DNA of 32,000 nucleotides from NCBI GenBank assembly GCA_000147015.1, contig CP002161.1, positions 1 to 32,000 of the forward strand. Direction: 5' to 3'. The position numbers and the translations under genes are program-made. Origin of the DNA: Candidatus Saccharimonadota bacterium. GTDB taxonomy: Bacteria; Pseudomonadota; Gammaproteobacteria; Burkholderiales; Burkholderiaceae. This document shows positions 5,142-30,681 of the stretch, piece after piece; position 1 is the stretch's first letter; every line of letters begins with the position of its first letter. The notes under the pieces are model-generated. The model saw only the letters and a list, made by a program, of their open reading frames with translations. It did no database searches and was not told the origin of the DNA.

Positions 5142-5273
5142 TATTAAAATAAAATTTTACATATTTTAGAGTACTACCAGGGTATTGTTAAGTTTACTTT
5201 TTAACAAAAAAATGGATTTATAAAATTGAAGATTTTAAAAATATAAATATAGTAAAAAATAATTTTAATTAGC

Positions 5274-5291
5274 GTGGGCACTTAATTTATG
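5274..5291 (+). promoter_or_regulatory. 5' arm of the 16S rRNA processing stem (RNase III-type helix)
   Basis: gtgggcacttaatt(t)atg at 5274-5291 is the reverse complement of cataattaagtgcccac at 6856-6872. That gives 14 perfect bp plus 3 more after a 1-nt bulge, bracketing the 16S gene. Confidence 0.6.
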
Positions 5292-5311
5292 TTAATATAA
5301 GATACTTAAAT

Positions 5312-6842
<1,531 letters not shown>

Positions 6843-6855
6843 AATTAAATAAAAA

Positions 6856-6872
6856 CATAATTAAGTGCCCAC
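6856..6872 (+). promoter_or_regulatory. 3' arm of the 16S rRNA processing stem
   Basis: Reverse complement of 5274-5291 (see the 5' arm). Confidence 0.6.
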
Positions 6873-6930
6873 ACTTATTAGAAATTATAATTTTTAATTT
6901 TTATTTTTATAATAATATTTAATATTATAA

Positions 6931-9818
<2,888 letters not shown>

Positions 9819-9851
9819 ATACTATTAAATAATAAAATGTTTATTAATATA

Positions 9852-9962
9852 TTCTGATAAATATAGCTAATTGGAACCACTCTTAACCATTCCGAACAAG
9901 ATAGTGAAACGATTATACGCCGATGATAGTATTTAAAATGCGAAAGTAGGTAATTATCAGAA
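9852..9962 (+). rRNA. rrf: 5S ribosomal RNA
   Basis: Terminal helix ttctgataa / ttatcagaa. Internal CCATTCCGAAC...AGTGAAAC...GCCGATGATAGT...GCGAAAGTAGG matches the 5S consensus. About 111 nt. Confidence 0.9.
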
Positions 9963-9967
9963 ATTTA

Positions 9968-10189
9968 TTAAATATATCTATATATAATTCTTCCATTTTT
10001 TTTATCATGTATTGATATTTCAACTATTACTGTATCACCATTTAATATTCTAATATGATTTTTTTTTATTTTACCTGAGGCATAAGCTGTTATTATTTTA
10101 TTTTCAAATGTTTTAATTCTAAATTTATAATTAGGTAAAACTTCTAAAACTTTACCTTTAATTTTTAATATTCCTTCTTTTTTTTTCAT
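9968..10189 (-). CDS. infA: translation initiation factor IF-1
   Basis: Track ORF of 73 aa. GKVLEVLPNYKFRIKTFENKIITAYASGKIKKNHIRILNGDTVIVEIS aligns along its full length with IF-1. Confidence 0.95.
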   Translation of the reverse strand: MKKKEGILKIKGKVLEVLPNYKFRIKTFENKIITAYASGKIKKNHIRILNGDTVIVEISIHDKKNGRIIYRYI

Positions 10190-10784
10190 TAATAATAATA
10201 TTATTTAAATTATTTATTAAAATATCAAATTCAATATTAACTTTATCCAATAATTTTAAGAATTTTAAATTTGTATTTTTAAAAGTAAAATTTATTATAT
10301 TTATTGTAAAAAAAATATATTTATTAGAAAATTCTATATTATTAATAGTTAAAGATATGCCATTTATTGATATTGAATTTTTTTTTTTTATTTTATTAAA
10401 ATATTTAGATATTTTAAATATAATAATATGTGATTTTTTATTTTTTTTTATATTTATTATTTTACCTATAGTATTTATATGACCATATATAATATGACCA
10501 TTTATATAATTTTTAATTTTTAATGAATTTTCAAAATTAATATAATTATTAATTTTAAAATTTACTACATATTTTAATGTTTCTTTAGAAATATTTATAA
10601 ATAAATTATTTTTTTTAATACTTAATATTGTGGTACAAATACCATTTAAACAAATAGAATCTCCTCTTTTACATTTTTTTTTTATTTTTTTGTTTATTTT
10701 TAATTTTATTCTATATTCTTTTTTGTTTTTATATTTTTTTATTTTTCTAATTTTAAATATATAATTTATAATACCACTAAACAT
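10158..10784 (-). CDS. ribE: riboflavin synthase (alpha subunit)
   Basis: Track ORF of 208 aa. MFSGII start, GDSICLNGICTT and a second ISINGISLT repeat are typical of the two-barrel riboflavin synthase. Its 3' end overlaps the infA start by 32 nt. Confidence 0.85.
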   Translation of the reverse strand: MFSGIINYIFKIRKIKKYKNKKEYRIKLKINKKIKKKCKRGDSICLNGICTTILSIKKNNLFINISKETLKYVVNFKINNYINFENSLKIKNYINGHIIYGHINTIGKIINIKKNKKSHIIIFKISKYFNKIKKKNSISINGISLTINNIEFSNKYIFFTINIINFTFKNTNLKFLKLLDKVNIEFDILINNLNNIIINEKKRRNIKN

Positions 10785-11854
10785 TAAATTTTTTTTAATA
10801 ATATTCTTAAATCTTTATTAAAATATTTTATACTTTCAAAATTATATTTTATAGAATAAATTATTTTTTTTATTATTTTAAAATTAAAAATATTATTAGA
10901 TTTTCCTAATATTATTGGAGATAAATATATTAAAATTTCATTTATTTTATTTAAAGATATTAAAGTATTATTTATAGAAAAACCAGATTCAAATTGTATT
11001 TCATTAATTTTTAAAAATGAAATTTTTTCTATTATTCTTTTAAAATTTAATTTTTTATTATTTAATTTTATTTTAAATATTTTAATTCCTAATTTTTTTA
11101 ATTTTCTTATTTTTTTTTTATTTTTTGAATTTGTAAAAATAATTATATAGTTATTTTTTAAATAATTAGAATTTAATGATATTTTTAATTTAGTATCAAT
11201 TAGTATATTTTTTATGTCTTTTATTTTTTTAAAATTTCTTATGTTAATAAAACTATTATCTTTTAATATTGTTCCAATTCCTGTAATTATAGCACATGAT
11301 TTAATTCTTCATAATTGATTATTAATTCTTGAAATTTTATTTGTAATTCATTTACTTTTTTTATTTTTTAAGCAAATTTTATTATCTATACTAGATGCAA
11401 TTTTTAACCTTATTAAAGGTTTTTTATTTTTCACTTTATAGAAATAACCTTTATTTATTTTTTTATATATTTTATTAAGTAAACCTAAATTTATTTTTAT
11501 ATTTTTTAATTTTAAAATTTTTATACTATTATTATATATATTTTTATTATTATCTAATTTACAAATAAATATTTTATAAATATTTATATTTATTAAATAT
11601 TCTAAACAAGAATTTGTTAATCCTAAATAATTACATGGTTCTAATGTTAAATATATATTTATTTTTTTATTATTTTTTATATTTTTTAATGCATTTATTT
11701 CTGCATGGTTATAACCTTTAAATTTTGTGTAACCCAAAATATTTTTTTTAATATAACATCCTACACTTGGATTTGGTGAAGAAAAAAAAACTGCTTTTTT
11801 AGACAAATAAATTGCTTTAAGCATATTTTTTATATTTTCTTCCTTATTCTTCAT
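10784..11854 (-). CDS. ribD: bifunctional riboflavin biosynthesis protein RibD (deaminase/reductase)
   Basis: Track ORF 11348..11854 carries the deaminase motifs HAEINAL and LEPCNYLGLTNSC. Codon-by-codon hand translation shows the frame stays open through TGA at 11348 and 11309. It continues into the reductase domain (SRINNQLW..SCAIITGIGTILKDN) to TAA at 10784-10786, which overlaps the ribE ATG (TAATG). Confidence 0.85.
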
Positions 11855-11860
11855 TTTTTT

Positions 11861-11933
11861 TGGGTTGTACAGGATTCGGACCTGCGACCAACGGATTAAA
11901 AGTCCGCTGCTCTACCAACTGAGCTAACAACCC
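11861..11933 (-). tRNA. tRNA-Lys (anticodon UUU)
   Basis: The reverse complement GGGTTGTTAGCTCAGTTGGTAGAGCAGCGGACTTTTAATCCGTTGGTCGCAGGTCCGAATCCTGTACAACCCA folds as a cloverleaf with anticodon loop CTTTTAA. No CCA is encoded. The 3' end lies 6 nt from the ribD ATG. Confidence 0.9.
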
Positions 11934-11944
11934 TTTTAATATTT

Positions 11945-12905
11945 TAAAATTTATTTAAAATATTAATAATAATTTATATTTATAATAAAAAATAATTTTT
12001 ATTAAAAATAATTAATGGAAAATAATAAATTATTTTGAAATTAGTTTAATAATAATTTAATAATATTAAAAATAATTATTTTAAAATTTATTTATTAATA
12101 ATTTATATAATTTATTTCAAATTATAAAAATACTATTTGAATTATATTATTTTTTTTTTATTAAAAATAATTTTAATTTAATTAATAAATTTTTAATAAT
12201 AGTTAAAAATTGGTTTAGTAATAATTTATTTATTTAATTTAGATAATAAATAATTTTTATTATATATTAAAATAAAAATTAGTTTAAAATTTATTAATAT
12301 ATAATTATTAATAAAAAATAATTTTTTTAAAATAATTAATGGAAAATAATAATTAATTTTAAATTGGTTTAGTAATAATTTATTTATTTAATTTAAATAA
12401 TAATAATAATTTTTATTATAATATTAAAAAATAATTATTTTAAAATTTATTTATTAATAATTTATATAATTTATTTAAAATTATAAAATATATTAATTTT
12501 TTTTTATTAAAAATAATTTTAATTTAATTAATAAATTTTTAATAATGTTAAAAATTGGTTTAGTAATAATTTATTTAATTTAGATAATAAATAATTTTAT
12601 TATATATTAAATAAATAATTAGTTAAAATTTATTCATATATAATTTTTAATTAATAAAAAATAATTTTTATTAAAATAATTAATGGAAAATAATAATTAA
12701 TTTTAAATTGGTTTAGTAATAATTTATTTATTTAATTTAAAATAATAAATAATTTTTATTATAATATTAAAAAATAATTATTTTAAAATTTATTTATTAA
12801 TAATTTATATAATTTATTTAAAATTATAAAAATACTATTTGAATTATATTATATATTAATTTTTTTTTATTAAAAATAATTTTAATTTAATTAATAAATT
12901 TTTAA
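11945..12905. repeat. tandem array, about 2.7 copies of a 325-345-bp A/T-only unit with a nested half-unit repeat
   Basis: The anchor taattaatGGaaaataataa has its GG at 12017, 12341 and 12685. The anchor attggtttagtaataattta starts at 12209, 12363, 12554 and 12707. Copies 2 and 3 are identical for 55 nt from 12341/12685. Copies differ mainly by short indels. Boundaries are approximate. Confidence 0.85.
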
Positions 12906-12942
12906 ATATATATATTACTTTTATATATATATTATTTTAATT

Positions 12943-12980
12943 ATATAAATTATATACATATTAAAGTATATAATTTATAT
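12943..12980. repeat. 15-bp perfect inverted repeat at the distal end of the repeat array
   Basis: atataaattatatac (12943-12957) and gtatataatttatat (12966-12980) are reverse complements separated by an 8-nt loop. The TA-rich context makes chance palindromes likely. Confidence 0.35.
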
Positions 12981-13156
12981 TAATTATTTTATTTTTTTAA
13001 AAATAAAAAATGAAAAAATTTTTTAAAAAAAGTTTAATTGAAATAAGTAAATTAAACTATAATATTATTATATTTTTTAATAATATTAAAAAAAATATAT
13101 TTAGTAAAATACTAAATATTAATAATATTTTAAATTTTTTTTATTAAAATAATAAT

Positions 13157-13693
13157 ATGAAAAAATTATATGCTACTACAATATTATCTGTTAGAATAGG
13201 AAAAAAAGTTGCTTTAGGAGGTGATGGTCAAGTAACTTTAGGTAATACTATTATAAAAGATAGAGCAAAAAAAATAAGAAAAATATATAATAATAAAATA
13301 TTAATAGGTATAGCTGGAGCTACTTCTGATGCATTTTCTTTATTAGATATGTTTGAAACAAAAGTAAAAATATTTAATGGTAATATTATAAAAGCAGCTG
13401 ATTGTTTATCTAAAGAATGAAGAGATAATAAAATATTTAGAAATTTAGAAGCTATGATATTAGTAGCAAATAAAAAAATAACTTTAATAATAACAGGTTT
13501 AGGTGATGTATTAGAACCTATAAATGGTATAGGAGCTATAGGTTCAGGAGGTATTTATGCACAATCTTCAGCTATGGCTTTAAAAGAAAATACTAATTTA
13601 AGTGCCTTTGAAATTGTTAAAAAATCTTTAAATATTGCAGGAAAATTATGTATTTATACAAATTTATTACATACTATAGAAACACTAGAATAG
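13157..13693 (+). CDS. hslV: ATP-dependent protease subunit HslV
   Basis: Track ORFs 13157..13420 and 13454..13693 share a frame, joined through TGA 13418-13420 at the conserved KDW-R Trp. [31 protein letters not shown] and CIYTN motifs are present. Confidence 0.93.
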
Positions 13694-13694
13694 A

Positions 13695-15045
13695 ATGTTA
13701 ACACCAATAGAAATATTAAATAAATTAAATAAAAAAGTTATAGGACAGGATTCAATTAAAAAAGCTATATCTATAGCACTTAGAAATCGTTGAACAAGAA
13801 TGAAATTACCTTATTATTTTAAAAAAAAAATATCTCCTAAAAATATTTTAATGATAGGTTCTACTGGAGTAGGAAAAACTGAAATTGCTAGAAGTTTAGC
13901 AAATATAATTAATGCTCCTTTTTTAAAAATAGAAGCTACAAAATTTACAGAAGTTGGTTATGTGGGTAGAGACGTTGAATCAATTATTAAAGAATTATTA
14001 GATATTTCTTTTAAAAAAACATTTTCTTTAGAATTAAAAAGATCTTTAAAAGAATCTTATAGAATTATTATAAATAGATTATTAAATATTATATTATTTG
14101 AAAATAAAATTTATGATTCTAAAATATATAATAAATTTGAATTATATTTAAAATCAAAAAAAATAAATGATTTAGAAGTTGAATTATTTTTTAATAAAAA
14201 AGGTAAATATTTTTTTAATACAAATAAATATTATGATAGATATTATTATATTAGAAATATATATGATACGCAAAAATAATTATTATAATAGATATTATTA
14301 TATTAGAAATATATATGATACGTATAATTATTTTAAAAAAAATAAAATTTTAATTAAATTCAAAAAAATATTTGATTTTTTTATTAAAAAAAAAATTGTT
14401 AAAATAATAAATTTAGATAATTTAAAGTATAATGCAATAAAAAATGTTGAAAATAATGGTATTGTTTTTATAGATGAAATTGATAAAATAGCAAATAAAA
14501 ATACTTATAATAATGATGTATCTAGAACTGGTGTTCAAAGAGATTTATTATGTTTAGTAGAAGGTACTAATGTTAATACAAAATATGGTATTATTAATAC
14601 TAATCATATTTTATTTATTGCTGCTGGAGCATTTCATCTTTCTGATCCTTCTGATTTATTACCAGAGTTACAAGGAAGATTTCCAATTAGAGTTGAATTA
14701 AATAATTTAACTATTGAAGATTTTAAAAATATTTTAAAAAAAACTAAGTTTAATTTAATAAAACAATATAGATATTTATTAAAATGTGAAGGTGTTAAAT
14801 TAAATTTTACAAATGAAGCTATAAATAAAGTTTCTGAAATTTCTTATAATTTAAATAAAAAAGTTCAAAATTTAGGTGCTCGTAGATTATTTGAAATTTT
14901 AGAAAGAATTTTAGAAAGTATTTATTTTAATAATTTTGAATTAAAAAATTTAAATATAACTATAGATGAAAAATATATAATTGATTTTTTTAATAATAAT
15001 ATTAAAAAAAAAGATAAAAAAGATTATTATAAATATATTTTATAA
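13695..15045 (+). pseudogene. hslU: ATP-dependent protease ATPase subunit HslU, interrupted by a +1 frameshift
   Basis: The N-terminal part (ATG 13695, TGA-Trp 13791 in LRNRW, Walker [13 protein letters not shown]) ends at TAA 14277-14279. The C-terminal part (Walker B IVFIDEIDKI, VQRDLL, ELQGRFPIRVEL, GARRL) is the +1 frame of track ORF 14179..15045. The peptide YY(D/N)[11 protein letters not shown] is encoded in both frames by a 52-nt tandem duplication. Deleting 14271-14322 gives one 432-aa ORF. Confidence 0.85.
14221..14322 (+). repeat. tandem duplication (50 + 52 nt) inside hslU
   Basis: Copy 1 is 14221-14270 and copy 2 is 14271-14322. The cores 14229-14270 and 14281-14322 are 41/42 identical at a 52-nt offset. 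Confidence 0.9.
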
Positions 15046-16079
15046 TGTTATTCAAAGATAAATATAATTTAAAATTTAAATATTCTAAATTATTAAAATA
15101 TATTTTAATACAAAAAATAAAAAAAAAAAAATATTTAAAATTTTCTGAATTTATAAATATAATTTTATATAAAAAAAAAATAGGTTATTATAATAATTTT
15201 TTATTTTATAATAAAAAAGATTATTTAACAAGTTCTCAAATTTCTAATATTTTTACAATTTCTTTAGCTAATTTTTTTTTTTTTTTTTTAAAAAAAGAGT
15301 TTTGTAAAATATTAGAATTTGGAGGAGGTAATGGAAAATTTGCTTTTAATATTTTAAAAGAATTAAAAAAATTTAATTTATTTCCTAAATATTATATTAT
15401 AGAAAAATCTAGATATTTAAAAAATATTAAAAAAAAAAAATATAAAAATATAAAATGAATAAAAAAAATACCTAAAAATTTTTCTGGAATAATTTTTTTA
15501 AATGAAGTTTTAGATTCTATACCTTTTGATTTAATTATAAAAAATAATAATAATTACTATAATAGTAATATAATTATTAATAATGAATTAAATTTTGTTT
15601 TTAAAAATAAAAAAATAAATAAAAAATATTTAAGTTTTTTTATTAAAAATAGATATTATAATTTATATAAATTTATTAATAATATTTTTTTAAATATTAA
15701 AAATAATAAAAATATTATTATTATTATAGATTATGGTAATTTAAATAATTTTTATATAAAAAATAACTTTATGTGTTTTTATAAACATTTTTCTCATGGT
15801 AATCCATTTTCTTTCCCTGGTTTACAAGATATTACTAATTTTGTAAATTTTAAATTTATATTAAAATTAATAGTTAAATATAAATTTAAAATTTTAAATT
15901 TTTCTAATCAAGAAAATTTTATTTTAAATATTGGAATATTAGATTTTTTAAAAAAAAAAAAATATAATAAAATTAAATATTTTAATAAAATTAATTTTTT
16001 AAAAAAAATTATTTTACCTTATGAAATGGGTGAAATTTTTAAAGTTCTAATTTTAGGAAATAAAATTAATATTTATTAA
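15045..16079 (+). CDS. class I SAM-dependent methyltransferase, MidA/NDUFAF7 (DUF185, COG1565) family
   Basis: Track ORFs 15045..15458 and 15771..16079 share a frame, joined through TGA 15456. Family-like motifs: IGYYNN, LEFGGGNGKFA, IIEKS, W..IP, FLNEVLDSIP, IIDYG, GLQDITNFVNF, GEIFKVL. The ATG overlaps the hslU stop (TAATG). Confidence 0.6.
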
Positions 16080-16094
16080 TAATTTTATAATATA

Positions 16095-16541
16095 ATGAAT
16101 AAAGTAAAGGGTTTATTAATTATTTCTTGTTATAATAATAAATTATGTAGTTTATTATTAGAAAGTATATTTAAACATATGATTATTTATAAAATAAATG
16201 AAAAAAATTTAATATATTTAAAAATTCCAGGATCTTTAGAATTTTCATGAATTATTAAAAAATTATTAAATTTTAATTTTATAAATTTTATATTTGTATT
16301 AGGTATAATAATAAAAGGTAAAACAATTCATTATAAATTAGTATCTAATATTTCTTATTATTATATTAATAAATTATCTTATAATATTAATATTCCTTTA
16401 ATAAATTTGTTAATTACTATAAATAATGTAAATCAATTTTTAAATCGTATTAAATATAATATTTTAAATTCTATATATAATATTTTAAAGATTTCAAATT
16501 TAAATAAAATATTATTATGAGAATTACAACAAATAAACTAA
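16095..16541 (+). CDS. ribH: 6,7-dimethyl-8-ribityllumazine synthase
   Basis: Hand translation from ATG 16095 with TGA read as Trp. IPGSLEFS, VLGIIIKGKTIHYKLV and IPLINLLIT parallel VPGA.ELP, ALG.VIRG.T.H..YV and IPV..GVLT of RibH. TAA at 16539-16541. Overlaps the next gene by 25 nt. Confidence 0.75.
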
Positions 16542-17017
16542 TAAAAAATATATTTGATTTTATAAATATATTATTATTAAAAAAAAATTGAAATTGTTTA
16601 TTTTTTTTAGATTTATTTTTTGGATATGGTAATTTTATTAAAAAAATTTATAAAAAAAAATTATCATATATTTTAATAATAGAAAAAAGTAATTTTAAAA
16701 TAAATATATTTAAAAATAAGAAATATGATATTAAAATTATTAAAAATAATAGTTTTTTTTTTTTAAAAAAAAAAATAAAAAAAAATTATTTTAAAAAATT
16801 TAATATTATTTTTATTGATCCACCTTTTTACAATAAATTTATATTTAAATTAATTTATTATTTAAATATTATTTGTTTTAAAAATACTATAATAATTTTA
16901 GAAATTGAAAAAAAAATATTTTATAATAATATTTATATTTTTTTTAGAAATTGAAAAATAATTAAAATAAATAAAATAGGTATTGTTTATTTATTTTTAT
17001 TATTTAAATTTAATTAA
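16517..17017 (+). CDS. rsmD: RsmD-like 16S rRNA (guanine966-N2)-methyltransferase
   Basis: Hand translation from ATG 16517 with two TGA-Trp. FLDLFFGYGNF (SAM-binding LD.F.G.G) and IIFIDPPF (DPPF/Y catalytic motif). TAA at 17015-17017. Confidence 0.55.
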
Positions 17018-17318
17018 AAATTTATAATATAAATTTTATTTTATTTTTAAAATTAAATAATAATTTTTATTATTTAAATTATTAATTTGTAATATATTTT
17101 ATAATTCAATTGTTAAATTAATAAACTTTTAATATATTTATTTTTGATTTAAATCTAAGTCAATGAGTTTTAATATTTAAATTTAAAAAAAAATTATTAA
17201 AATATAAAAATAAATAATTAATATATTAAATTTTTTTAAATTAATAATTTATATTGATTTATTAAATATAAATAATTTTAATTATTTATATCTTATTATT
17301 AAATAAATATATAAAAAT

Positions 17319-17391
17319 TCCTTGATAACTCAGTTGGTAGAGTGATGGACTGTTAATCCATTTGTCCCTGGTTCAAATACAGGTCAAGGAG
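17319..17391 (+). tRNA. tRNA-Asn (anticodon GUU)
   Basis: TCCTTGATAACTCAGTTGGTAGAGTGATGGACTGTTAATCCATTTGTCCCTGGTTCAAATACAGGTCAAGGAG. The acceptor stem TCCTTGA/TCAAGGA is perfect and the anticodon loop is CTGTTAA. No CCA is encoded. Confidence 0.9.
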
Positions 17392-17536
17392 TTTTAAATT
17401 TAATATAGGATAAATTATTAAAATAAATAATAAAATAATTATTAAAAATAAATAATTATTTTTATTATTAAAAATTTATAGATATATTAATTATAATATT
17501 TTATTATTTAATTTTTATTATAAAATTATTTTTAAA

Positions 17537-22345: not shown

Positions 22346-23984
<1,639 letters not shown>

Positions 23985-30608: not shown

Positions 30609-30681
30609 CGAAGTGAACGGGATTTGAACCCGCGACTCCTGGCTTGACAAGCCAGTGTTCTAACCTCTGAACTACCACTTC
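30609..30681 (-). tRNA. tRNA-Asp (anticodon GUC)
   Basis: The reverse complement GAAGTGGTAGTTCAGAGGTTAGAACACTGGCTTGTCAAGCCAGGAGTCGCGGGTTCAAATCCCGTTCACTTCG folds as a cloverleaf with anticodon loop TTGTCAA and discriminator G. No CCA is encoded. The 3' end is 7 nt from the thrS ATG. Confidence 0.9.

Follow-up and report, generated by a model that had tools for sequence, protein, structure and literature searches.

Nasuia and Zinderia are sister lineages of tiny betaproteobacterial symbionts that use genetic code 4 (PMC5533117, PMC7952229, PMC3787670). In several Nasuia genomes, a large noncoding region of unknown significance lies between hisG and gltX and contains tandem repeats and a segment with an A+T content of 98.3% (PMC5533117). 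In one Nasuia strain, the number of 72/79-bp units varied from 7 to 53 between long reads (PMC7952229), and a 1.1-kb tandem repeat was reported for an earlier Nasuia genome (PMC3787670). Here we describe a comparable tract in Candidatus Zinderia insecticola CARI, namely, a 1,223-nt repeat-filled spacer between a tRNA-Lys gene and hslV, at positions 11934 to 13156 of the window, by which we mean the whole 32,000-nt stretch that was analyzed (positions 1 to 32,000 of contig CP002161.1, GenBank assembly GCA_000147015.1). The GroEL protein encoded in the window (22349-23983) is 100% identical to that of Candidatus Zinderia insecticola CARI, which has a tiny insect-symbiont genome of 208,564 bp; the next best named GroEL match (82%) is that of the Zinderia endosymbiont of Aphrophora alni (OZ026462.1), the nearest sequenced relative, with a genome of 336,619 bp.

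The Zinderia array and the Nasuia repeat region belong to one kind of structure, although unit size, copy number, and slot differ. The features that mark a Nasuia-type region, i.e., a gene-free stretch of at least about 1 kb with an A+T content above 95% that consists mostly of head-to-tail repeats, were all found in the Zinderia tract. Both lineages thus have one conspicuous noncoding tandem-repeat tract of about 1 to 1.5 kb and about 98% A+T that breaks short-read assemblies, and Zinderia is, among the tiny betaproteobacterial symbionts of leafhoppers and spittlebugs, the second lineage for which such a kilobase-scale, ultra-A+T tract is documented. The Zinderia unit, however, is a higher-order repeat of 324 to 344 bp in about 2.7 copies, whereas Nasuia has tens of units of 72 to 79 bp, and according to the published description of Nasuia its repeats lie in the hisG-gltX slot rather than between tRNA-Lys and hslV (PMC5533117). 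Moreover, the Nasuia position is kept between distant hosts, while the Zinderia slot holds glyA in a congener. We found no mention of the array in the 2010 Zinderia genome paper (PMC2953269), nor did we find a paper in the literature describing this repeat or a Zinderia origin prediction.

A further point of comparison is offered by gene-loss scars, such as the "junk DNA" of Rickettsia and the late-stage erosion seen in insect symbionts. The Zinderia tract resembles these in being noncoding where a relative keeps a gene and in its extreme erosion to A+T, and a reciprocal tract in the A. alni symbiont keeps a trace of the gene that was lost there. It differs in that the CARI tract has no residual homology and owes most of its length to secondary tandem duplication. 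We consider it probable that the tract is a gene-loss scar in the slot of glyA, eroded to A+T and regrown by tandem duplication, and that it is noncoding filler without a function of its own. The comparison of two Zinderia genomes would then give such tracts a concrete origin, in that they sit where one lineage lost a gene kept by the other and duplication regrows the scar.

A two-level tandem array in the tRNA-Lys/hslV spacer

The tract contains 582 A, 599 T, 34 G, and 8 C residues (3.4% G+C; 96.6% A+T). As stated in the initial annotation, it has no open reading frame (ORF) of 60 amino acids (aa) or more; when it is read with code 4, no stretch free of stops exceeds 53 codons. Runs of 45 to 53 codons are roughly as long as expected by chance where a sequence consists of A and T only and most stops are TAA, and the length of a 45-codon, ATG-started ORF just upstream of hslV (13010-13147, plus strand) is likewise at chance level. 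Tandem Repeats Finder (TRF) called an array at 12060 to 12905 (period, 343; 2.4 copies; 89% matches) with a score of 1,314, while the maximum score in 100 shuffles of the tract was 359; other long-period TRF matches in the window scored at most 291 or were subperiods of the same array. Copy boundaries were set from a MAFFT alignment of the repeat copies. At the composition of the tract, self-blastn with permissive scoring aligns everything with everything, and MAFFT and TRF were relied on instead. The resulting layout, including the tract boundaries, is as follows.

11861-11933, minus strand: tRNA-Lys (UUU), left boundary of the tract (ARAGORN; Rfam tRNA, 73.5 bits)
11934-11974: left flank, degenerate and similar to the 3' end of the unit; presumed tRNA-Lys promoter region
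11975-12298 (324 nt): repeat copy 1, lacking about 35 nt found in copies 2 and 3, with two unit G's now A
12299-12642 (344 nt): repeat copy 2, lacking the approximately 20-nt AATACTATTTGAATTATATT
12643-12905 (263 nt): repeat copy 3, truncated at the array end at 12905
12026-12110: approximately 100-nt module a1
12196-12300: module b1
12350-12450: module a2
12541-12645: module b2
12694-12795: module a3
12906-13156, plus strand: unique TA-rich segment upstream of hslV; presumed hslV promoter, e.g., TTGAAA at 13038
13157-13693, plus strand: hslV, right boundary of the tract (code 4 ORF; Pfam Proteasome)

TRF and the alignment together bear out the array of about 2.7 copies of a 324-to-344-bp unit that had been proposed from inspection, spanning approximately 11975 to 12905, and the TRF end at 12905 is where the array had been said to stop; in a low-stringency self-alignment, the periodicity reaches approximately 11945 on the left. 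Outside gaps, the copies are 94 to 97% identical (copy 1 versus copy 2, 95.3 to 95.7%; copy 1 versus copy 3, 94.1%; copy 2 versus copy 3, 96.7%). They also differ by the indels that had been pointed out (copy 2 is missing the 20-nt AATACTATTTGAATTATATT and copy 1 is missing the 35 nt). The GG anchors recur at 12017, 12341, and 12685, and the anchor TTGGTTTAG, also described previously, was located at 12212, 12366, 12557, and 12710, with a degenerate copy near 12040. The suspected older duplication within the unit is seen in the alignment as five modules of about 100 nt that share the core AAATTGGTTTAGTAATAATTTATTTATTTAATTTA and fall into an a type (a1, a2, and a3) and a b type (b1 and b2), which differ from each other at consistent diagnostic sites. 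This two-level pattern indicates that the module was duplicated first and that the a+b unit was duplicated afterwards. The array is thus a small higher-order repeat in which no homogenization between a and b modules has taken place, and this, along with the 94 to 97% identity of the copies, fits the relatively recent expansion that had been one of the suggested explanations. Constraint, another of those suggestions, is not supported: of the 11 G's of the unit, 2 have become A in the edge copy (copy 1), which is what neutral decay from GC to AT would produce. The 15-bp perfect inverted repeat noted to the right of the array (12943-12957/12966-12980) is indeed present but is at chance level, inverted repeats of at least that length having occurred in 28 of 200 shuffles.

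The array junction and a neighboring duplication in independent reads

A 1,390-bp Logan unitig (L001) from run SRR29904085 is 100% identical to positions 12876 to 14265 of the window. When a de Bruijn graph (k = 31) was constructed solely from the window sequence, the predicted unitig had exactly these ends, one of which (12876) coincides with the final repeat junction in the array, while the other (14265) lies at a 52-bp tandem duplication within hslU and is where the unitig should end if that duplication is present in SRR29904085. Since the predicted and observed ends coincide, the array junction and the hslU duplication both exist in the reads of that run. The array is therefore not an assembly artifact; the unitig attests its junctions, not its copy number. 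Two unitigs of the same run, L001 and L052 (window 9654-11909), together cover 3,646 bp, noncoding DNA included, and match the 2010 CARI reference at 100% identity, so that either the same population was resequenced or diversity within the species is very low.

The neighboring duplication has the following coordinates.

13695-15045: hslU
14236-14287/14288-14339, plus strand: 52-bp tandem duplication inside hslU, with an exact 35-mer at 14236 and at 14288

With its period of 52 nt, the duplication introduces a frameshift and a stop. Removal of one of the two copies restores a 432-aa ORF that aligns from end to end with HslU of the A. alni symbiont (E = 4e-111), and hslU has therefore either become a pseudogene very recently or represents one allele within a population that is mixed (heteroplasmic). 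The same mutational mode, tandem duplication, is thus active 1.1 kb from the array, and gain of DNA by duplication goes on even in a genome of about 208 kb. Because the array and the hslU duplication both break short-read assemblies, they are natural markers for strain typing and for studies of heteroplasmy.

The homologous slot in the Zinderia symbiont of Aphrophora alni

The two Zinderia genomes share the collinear backbone infA-ribE-(X1)-tRNA-Lys-(X2)-hslV-hslU-(X3)-ribH-(X4)-rsmD-tRNA-Asn-(X5)-sbcB-trpGDC-groESL, and all differences between them in this block (10784-17536 of the window versus 5200-16130 of the A. alni sequence L048, to which the A. alni coordinates below refer) are differences of presence or absence. 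Three of the slots X1 to X5, together with the A. alni features around slot X2, are listed below.

X1, ribE to tRNA-Lys: ribD in CARI; ruvX, a DUF179 gene, and a LOG-like gene in A. alni
X2, tRNA-Lys (minus) to hslV (plus): the 1,223-bp array in CARI; a 206-bp spacer, glyA (1,236 bp), and 52 bp in A. alni
X3, hslU to ribH: an intact Methyltransf_28 gene in CARI; a 1.55-kb gene-free tract and then ribB in A. alni
L048 7887-7959, minus strand: A. alni tRNA-Lys bordering slot X2
L048 8166-9401: A. alni glyA, between tRNA-Lys (minus) and hslV (plus)

The slot that is filled by the array in CARI is therefore occupied by an intact gene in a collinear relative. A comparison of the tRNA-Lys/hslV region with that of related strains had been proposed in the initial annotation as a check; the spacers of the relative are short (206 and 52 bp), but glyA is present between them, and the noncoding slot is not conserved. 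The divergent spacer between tRNA-Lys (minus) and glyA (plus) in A. alni is filled by a 9-bp microsatellite, (TTATATATA)x19, at L048 7963 to 8131, which corresponds in position to the left edge of the CARI tract.

The reciprocal case is found in slot X3. In CARI, the Methyltransf_28 gene between hslU and ribH is intact (window 15045-16079; Pfam E = 4e-28). In A. alni, the 1.55 kb between hslU and ribB (L048 11363-12914; approximately 154.6 to 156.1 kb of OZ026462.1) has a G+C content of 1 to 6% and contains 60-to-63-bp tandem repeats, and it matches residues 95 to 170 of the CARI Methyltransf_28 protein on the expected strand, with in-frame stops (28.5 bits; 37% identity over 78 aa). The best of 500 dinucleotide shuffles scored 21.9 bits. 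Judged by this match, the A. alni tract is a decaying Methyltransf_28 pseudogene, which shows that kilobase-scale, ultra-A+T repeat tracts do arise from decaying genes in Zinderia.

Residual similarity to a lost gene was thus found in the A. alni tract and was not found in the CARI tract. A LOG remnant was not found in the CARI tract either, and the similarity of the DNA of the CARI tract to A. alni noncoding DNA was within the range of shuffles, such that the repeat unit is not detectably conserved. Lack of residual similarity is to be expected, because even HslV is only 63% identical between the two symbionts and because most of the tract is secondary duplication. (CARI HslV is 100% identical to that of Logan P0001.) A contig (L049) of another relative identified by GroEL, P0126, carried genes of the tricarboxylic acid (TCA) cycle and had no gene order in common with Zinderia, and it was dropped.

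As side observations, the CARI block is without ruvX, the DUF179 gene, the LOG-like gene, glyA, ribB, and ftsY, and the A. alni block is without ribD, Methyltransf_28, and fpr. The riboflavin genes are therefore split differently between the two symbionts, at least locally.

Strand polarity across the tract

The divergent orientation of the flanking genes had been considered the geometry expected at a replication origin. The tRNA-Lys (minus) and hslV (plus) genes are indeed divergent, but this geometry is not unique, since tRNA-Asp (minus) and tRNA-Gln (plus) at 30681/30701 are divergent as well. Similarly, the tract had been called the only large gene-free one; it is the only one lying wholly inside the window, but positions 1 to 418 are also gene free. 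Skew at third codon positions was computed separately for genes of each orientation on each side of the tract, with the following coding-strand A/T values.

Left of the tract, plus-strand genes (L+): -0.006
Left of the tract, minus-strand genes (L-): +0.102
Right of the tract, plus-strand genes (R+): -0.042
Right of the tract, minus-strand genes (R-): +0.102

The replication-associated A/T component, expressed for the plus strand, was -0.054 on the left (95% interval, -0.101 to -0.006) and -0.072 on the right (-0.100 to -0.044). A switch point at the tract, which had been named as a check on an origin, is thus missing within the 32-kb window, the component being same-signed on either side. If the tract were an origin, left-minus genes should equal right-plus genes and left-plus genes should equal right-minus genes. 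Both equalities were rejected (L- minus R+, 0.144 [0.058 to 0.228]; L+ minus R-, -0.108 [-0.176 to -0.039]), whereas both contrasts of the pairing expected for a fork that runs straight through include zero. The G/C skew component, although noisy, had the same direction on either side of the tract, and spacers both left and right of it have more G than C on the plus strand. Since skew is same-signed on both sides and spacers show G > C, the plus strand, enriched in G and T, has the character of a leading strand throughout the window. The plus orientation of the rRNA operon fits this assignment; it would be head-on to a leftward fork if the tract were the origin. As previously noted, no DnaA-box-like sequence is present in the tract: no TTATCCACA-like box with at most one mismatch was found within 11934 to 13156, and the whole window has 5 such boxes versus 7.3 expected. 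Positional conservation of the noncoding slot is absent in the A. alni symbiont, where the slot holds glyA. An origin (or a terminus) at the tract is therefore not supported, there being no polarity switch in third-position skew, and the case serves as a caution that the "only noncoding region" of a minimal genome need not be its origin.

Positions 1 to 418 of the window, upstream of mnmE-mnmG, form a gene-free stretch that is cut by the window edge. It has a G+C content of 5.3%, is A rich on the plus strand (244 A versus 152 T), and contains several short-period tandem repeats. Judging from the strand polarity of the window, the origin should lie leftward of position 1, and, speculatively, this stretch may be a better candidate than the array.

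Regulatory and RNA capacity of the tract

It had also been suggested that the tract is a shared divergent control region. This holds in the trivial sense that the promoters of tRNA-Lys and hslV must lie at its ends, and from the geometry the tRNA-Lys promoter must lie within its first tens of bases; 1.2 kb is not needed for this purpose, as the relative manages with 206 bp. The tract had no match in Rfam, and the repeat unit folds no better than shuffles (z = -0.52 for the plus strand and +0.36 for the minus strand), so that neither the family match nor the excess folding of a structured noncoding RNA gene is seen. Promoter-like hexamer pairs numbered 37 in the tract, with sites counted once per copy, versus 27.7 ± 4.5 in shuffles; a scan for promoters and terminators was set aside as evidence, being uninformative at this base composition.

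Origin of the tract and competing explanations

According to the explanation that we consider probable, glyA was most likely present in the tRNA-Lys (minus)/hslV (plus) slot of the common ancestor of Zinderia, as suggested by the one relative available for comparison. It would then have been lost and its remnant eroded to about 97% A+T, after which a module of about 100 bp would have been duplicated to give the a and b types, and tandem duplication would later have brought the a+b unit of about 340 bp to about 2.7 copies. The mechanism would have been slippage during replication or an unequal exchange between A+T sequences of low complexity, and a spacer of about 400 to 550 bp would have been roughly tripled in this way. 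The functional content is probably limited to the outward promoters, that of tRNA-Lys on the left and that of hslVU on the right, in the unique 250 bp; the array itself would be selectively neutral. Several points weigh against this explanation. The main uncertainty concerns the ancestral presence of glyA in the slot, which is argued from position and one relative and is accompanied by no remnant: a search of both strands of the CARI tract for GlyA gave 13.5 bits, a value equalled in 439 of 500 shuffles. The free-living outgroup Massilia, considered for the ancestral state, has a different hslV neighborhood and is uninformative on glyA in the slot. Absence of glyA is seen for this block of the 208-kb CARI genome, within the window, and the skew test likewise covers 32 kb with few G/C sites, so that only its A/T component is statistically firm. 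Since deletion bias should purge junk DNA, 1.2 kb would persist only if it had regrown recently, as argued here, or conferred some benefit. Lastly, the Nasuia repeat region keeps its hisG-gltX position across long-diverged hosts (PMC5533117), which could hint that such regions have a function in general.

The lack of a GlyA remnant in CARI would be accounted for if the ancestral spacer was short, glyA moved into it along the A. alni lineage, and the CARI tract grew purely by tandem duplication. In keeping with this, no more than about 400 to 550 bp is left once the duplications are collapsed, and the neighborhoods to the left of tRNA-Lys differ (ribD in CARI and ruvX-DUF179-LOG in A. alni). 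However, gene order is otherwise strictly collinear throughout the block and loss alone explains every difference, genomes as static as these rarely undergo translocation of a gene into a spacer, and the loss-scar route is directly demonstrated by the reciprocal case of Methyltransf_28; growth de novo is thus unlikely. Somewhat more doubtful still is a regulatory array, in which the units would carry promoters, UP elements, or protein-binding sites and the copy number would tune hslVU and/or tRNA-Lys-ribD-ribE-infA in the manner of a contingency locus. Both divergent promoters must, by geometry, fall within the tract, the left end of the array adjoins the 5' end of tRNA-Lys, and promoter-like hexamer pairs are somewhat enriched; but that enrichment is only about 2 standard deviations and is inflated by per-copy counting, the array stops 250 bp short of hslV and leaves a unique segment that can hold the promoter, and in A. 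alni a spacer of 206 bp suffices for the same divergent pair. Fine-tuning of the operon also seems unlikely given that hslU is frameshifted, and the G's of the unit show no conservation.

A replication role of a kind that does not depend on DnaA deserves separate consideration, since tiny symbionts of this group are not known to carry dnaA. The A+T-rich control region of insect mitochondrial DNA is the single large noncoding tract of a tiny, maternally inherited genome and has repeats of a few hundred base pairs, and the Zinderia tract is likewise ultra-A+T tandem-repeat noncoding DNA in a tiny A+T-rich genome. The mitochondrial region, however, is an origin and promoter hub with a conserved position, whereas the Zinderia tract has neither a polarity switch nor positional conservation. 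Bacterial oriC regions and plasmid iteron origins are also A+T rich, repeat bearing, and intergenic; the Zinderia tract differs in having no DnaA boxes or skew switch, and its repeats of 100 to 340 bp at a spacing of 154/191 nt are unlike iterons, which are 9-to-22-bp sites in helical phase. The tract is the only large gene-free one wholly inside the window, is ultra A+T rich, and has divergent neighbors, and Nasuia keeps a comparable repeat region of unknown function at a fixed position (PMC5533117, PMC7952229). Nevertheless, we regard a DnaA-independent origin or control region of the mitochondrial type as very unlikely, as the same-signed A/T skew, the rejection of the origin equalities with the straight-through equalities holding, the excess of G over C in plus-strand spacers on both sides, the head-on rRNA operon, the presence of glyA in the A. 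alni slot, the unconserved unit, the lack of DnaA boxes, and the chance-level hairpin all speak against it. It is, if anything, even less probable that the array, like the Nasuia repeat region with its conserved position, is part of a DnaA-independent control region for replication and segregation, similar to a mitochondrial A+T-rich region, in which tandem units recruit host-supplied or minimal replication proteins; were this true, local skew would be misleading, replication being unidirectional or the asymmetry being driven by transcription. Finally, the array or its copy number might have been made by misassembly of low-complexity reads from amplified DNA. The 2010 genome was obtained from whole-genome-amplified DNA, the Zinderia assembly at first comprised more than 50 contigs (PMC2953269), and the copy number is taken from the reference assembly alone. 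Yet the copies bear private indels and 3 to 6% substitutions, and the SRR29904085 unitig at 12876 to 14265, with the terminal repeat junction in those reads, is identical to the k = 31 graph prediction, which makes such an artifact exceedingly improbable.

Gene map of the window

The whole window has a G+C content of 15.8%, rRNA operon included, and its ORFs are full length only under genetic code 4, in which TGA encodes Trp. The genes outside the tract are arranged as follows.

Left part of the window, before the rRNA operon: mnmE, mnmG, lipB, and lipA, in this order
5312-9962, plus strand: 16S-23S-5S rRNA operon, left of the tract
Between the rRNA operon and the tract: infA, ribE, and ribD and then tRNA-Lys, all on the minus strand
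Right of the tract, in this order: hslV, hslU, the Methyltransf_28 gene, ribH, rsmD, tRNA-Asn, fpr, sbcB, trpGDC, groES/EL, and holB
After holB: pheT, pheS, rplT, rpmI, infC, and thrS, all on the minus strand
30681/30701, right end of the window: tRNA-Asp (minus)/tRNA-Gln (plus), followed by prsA

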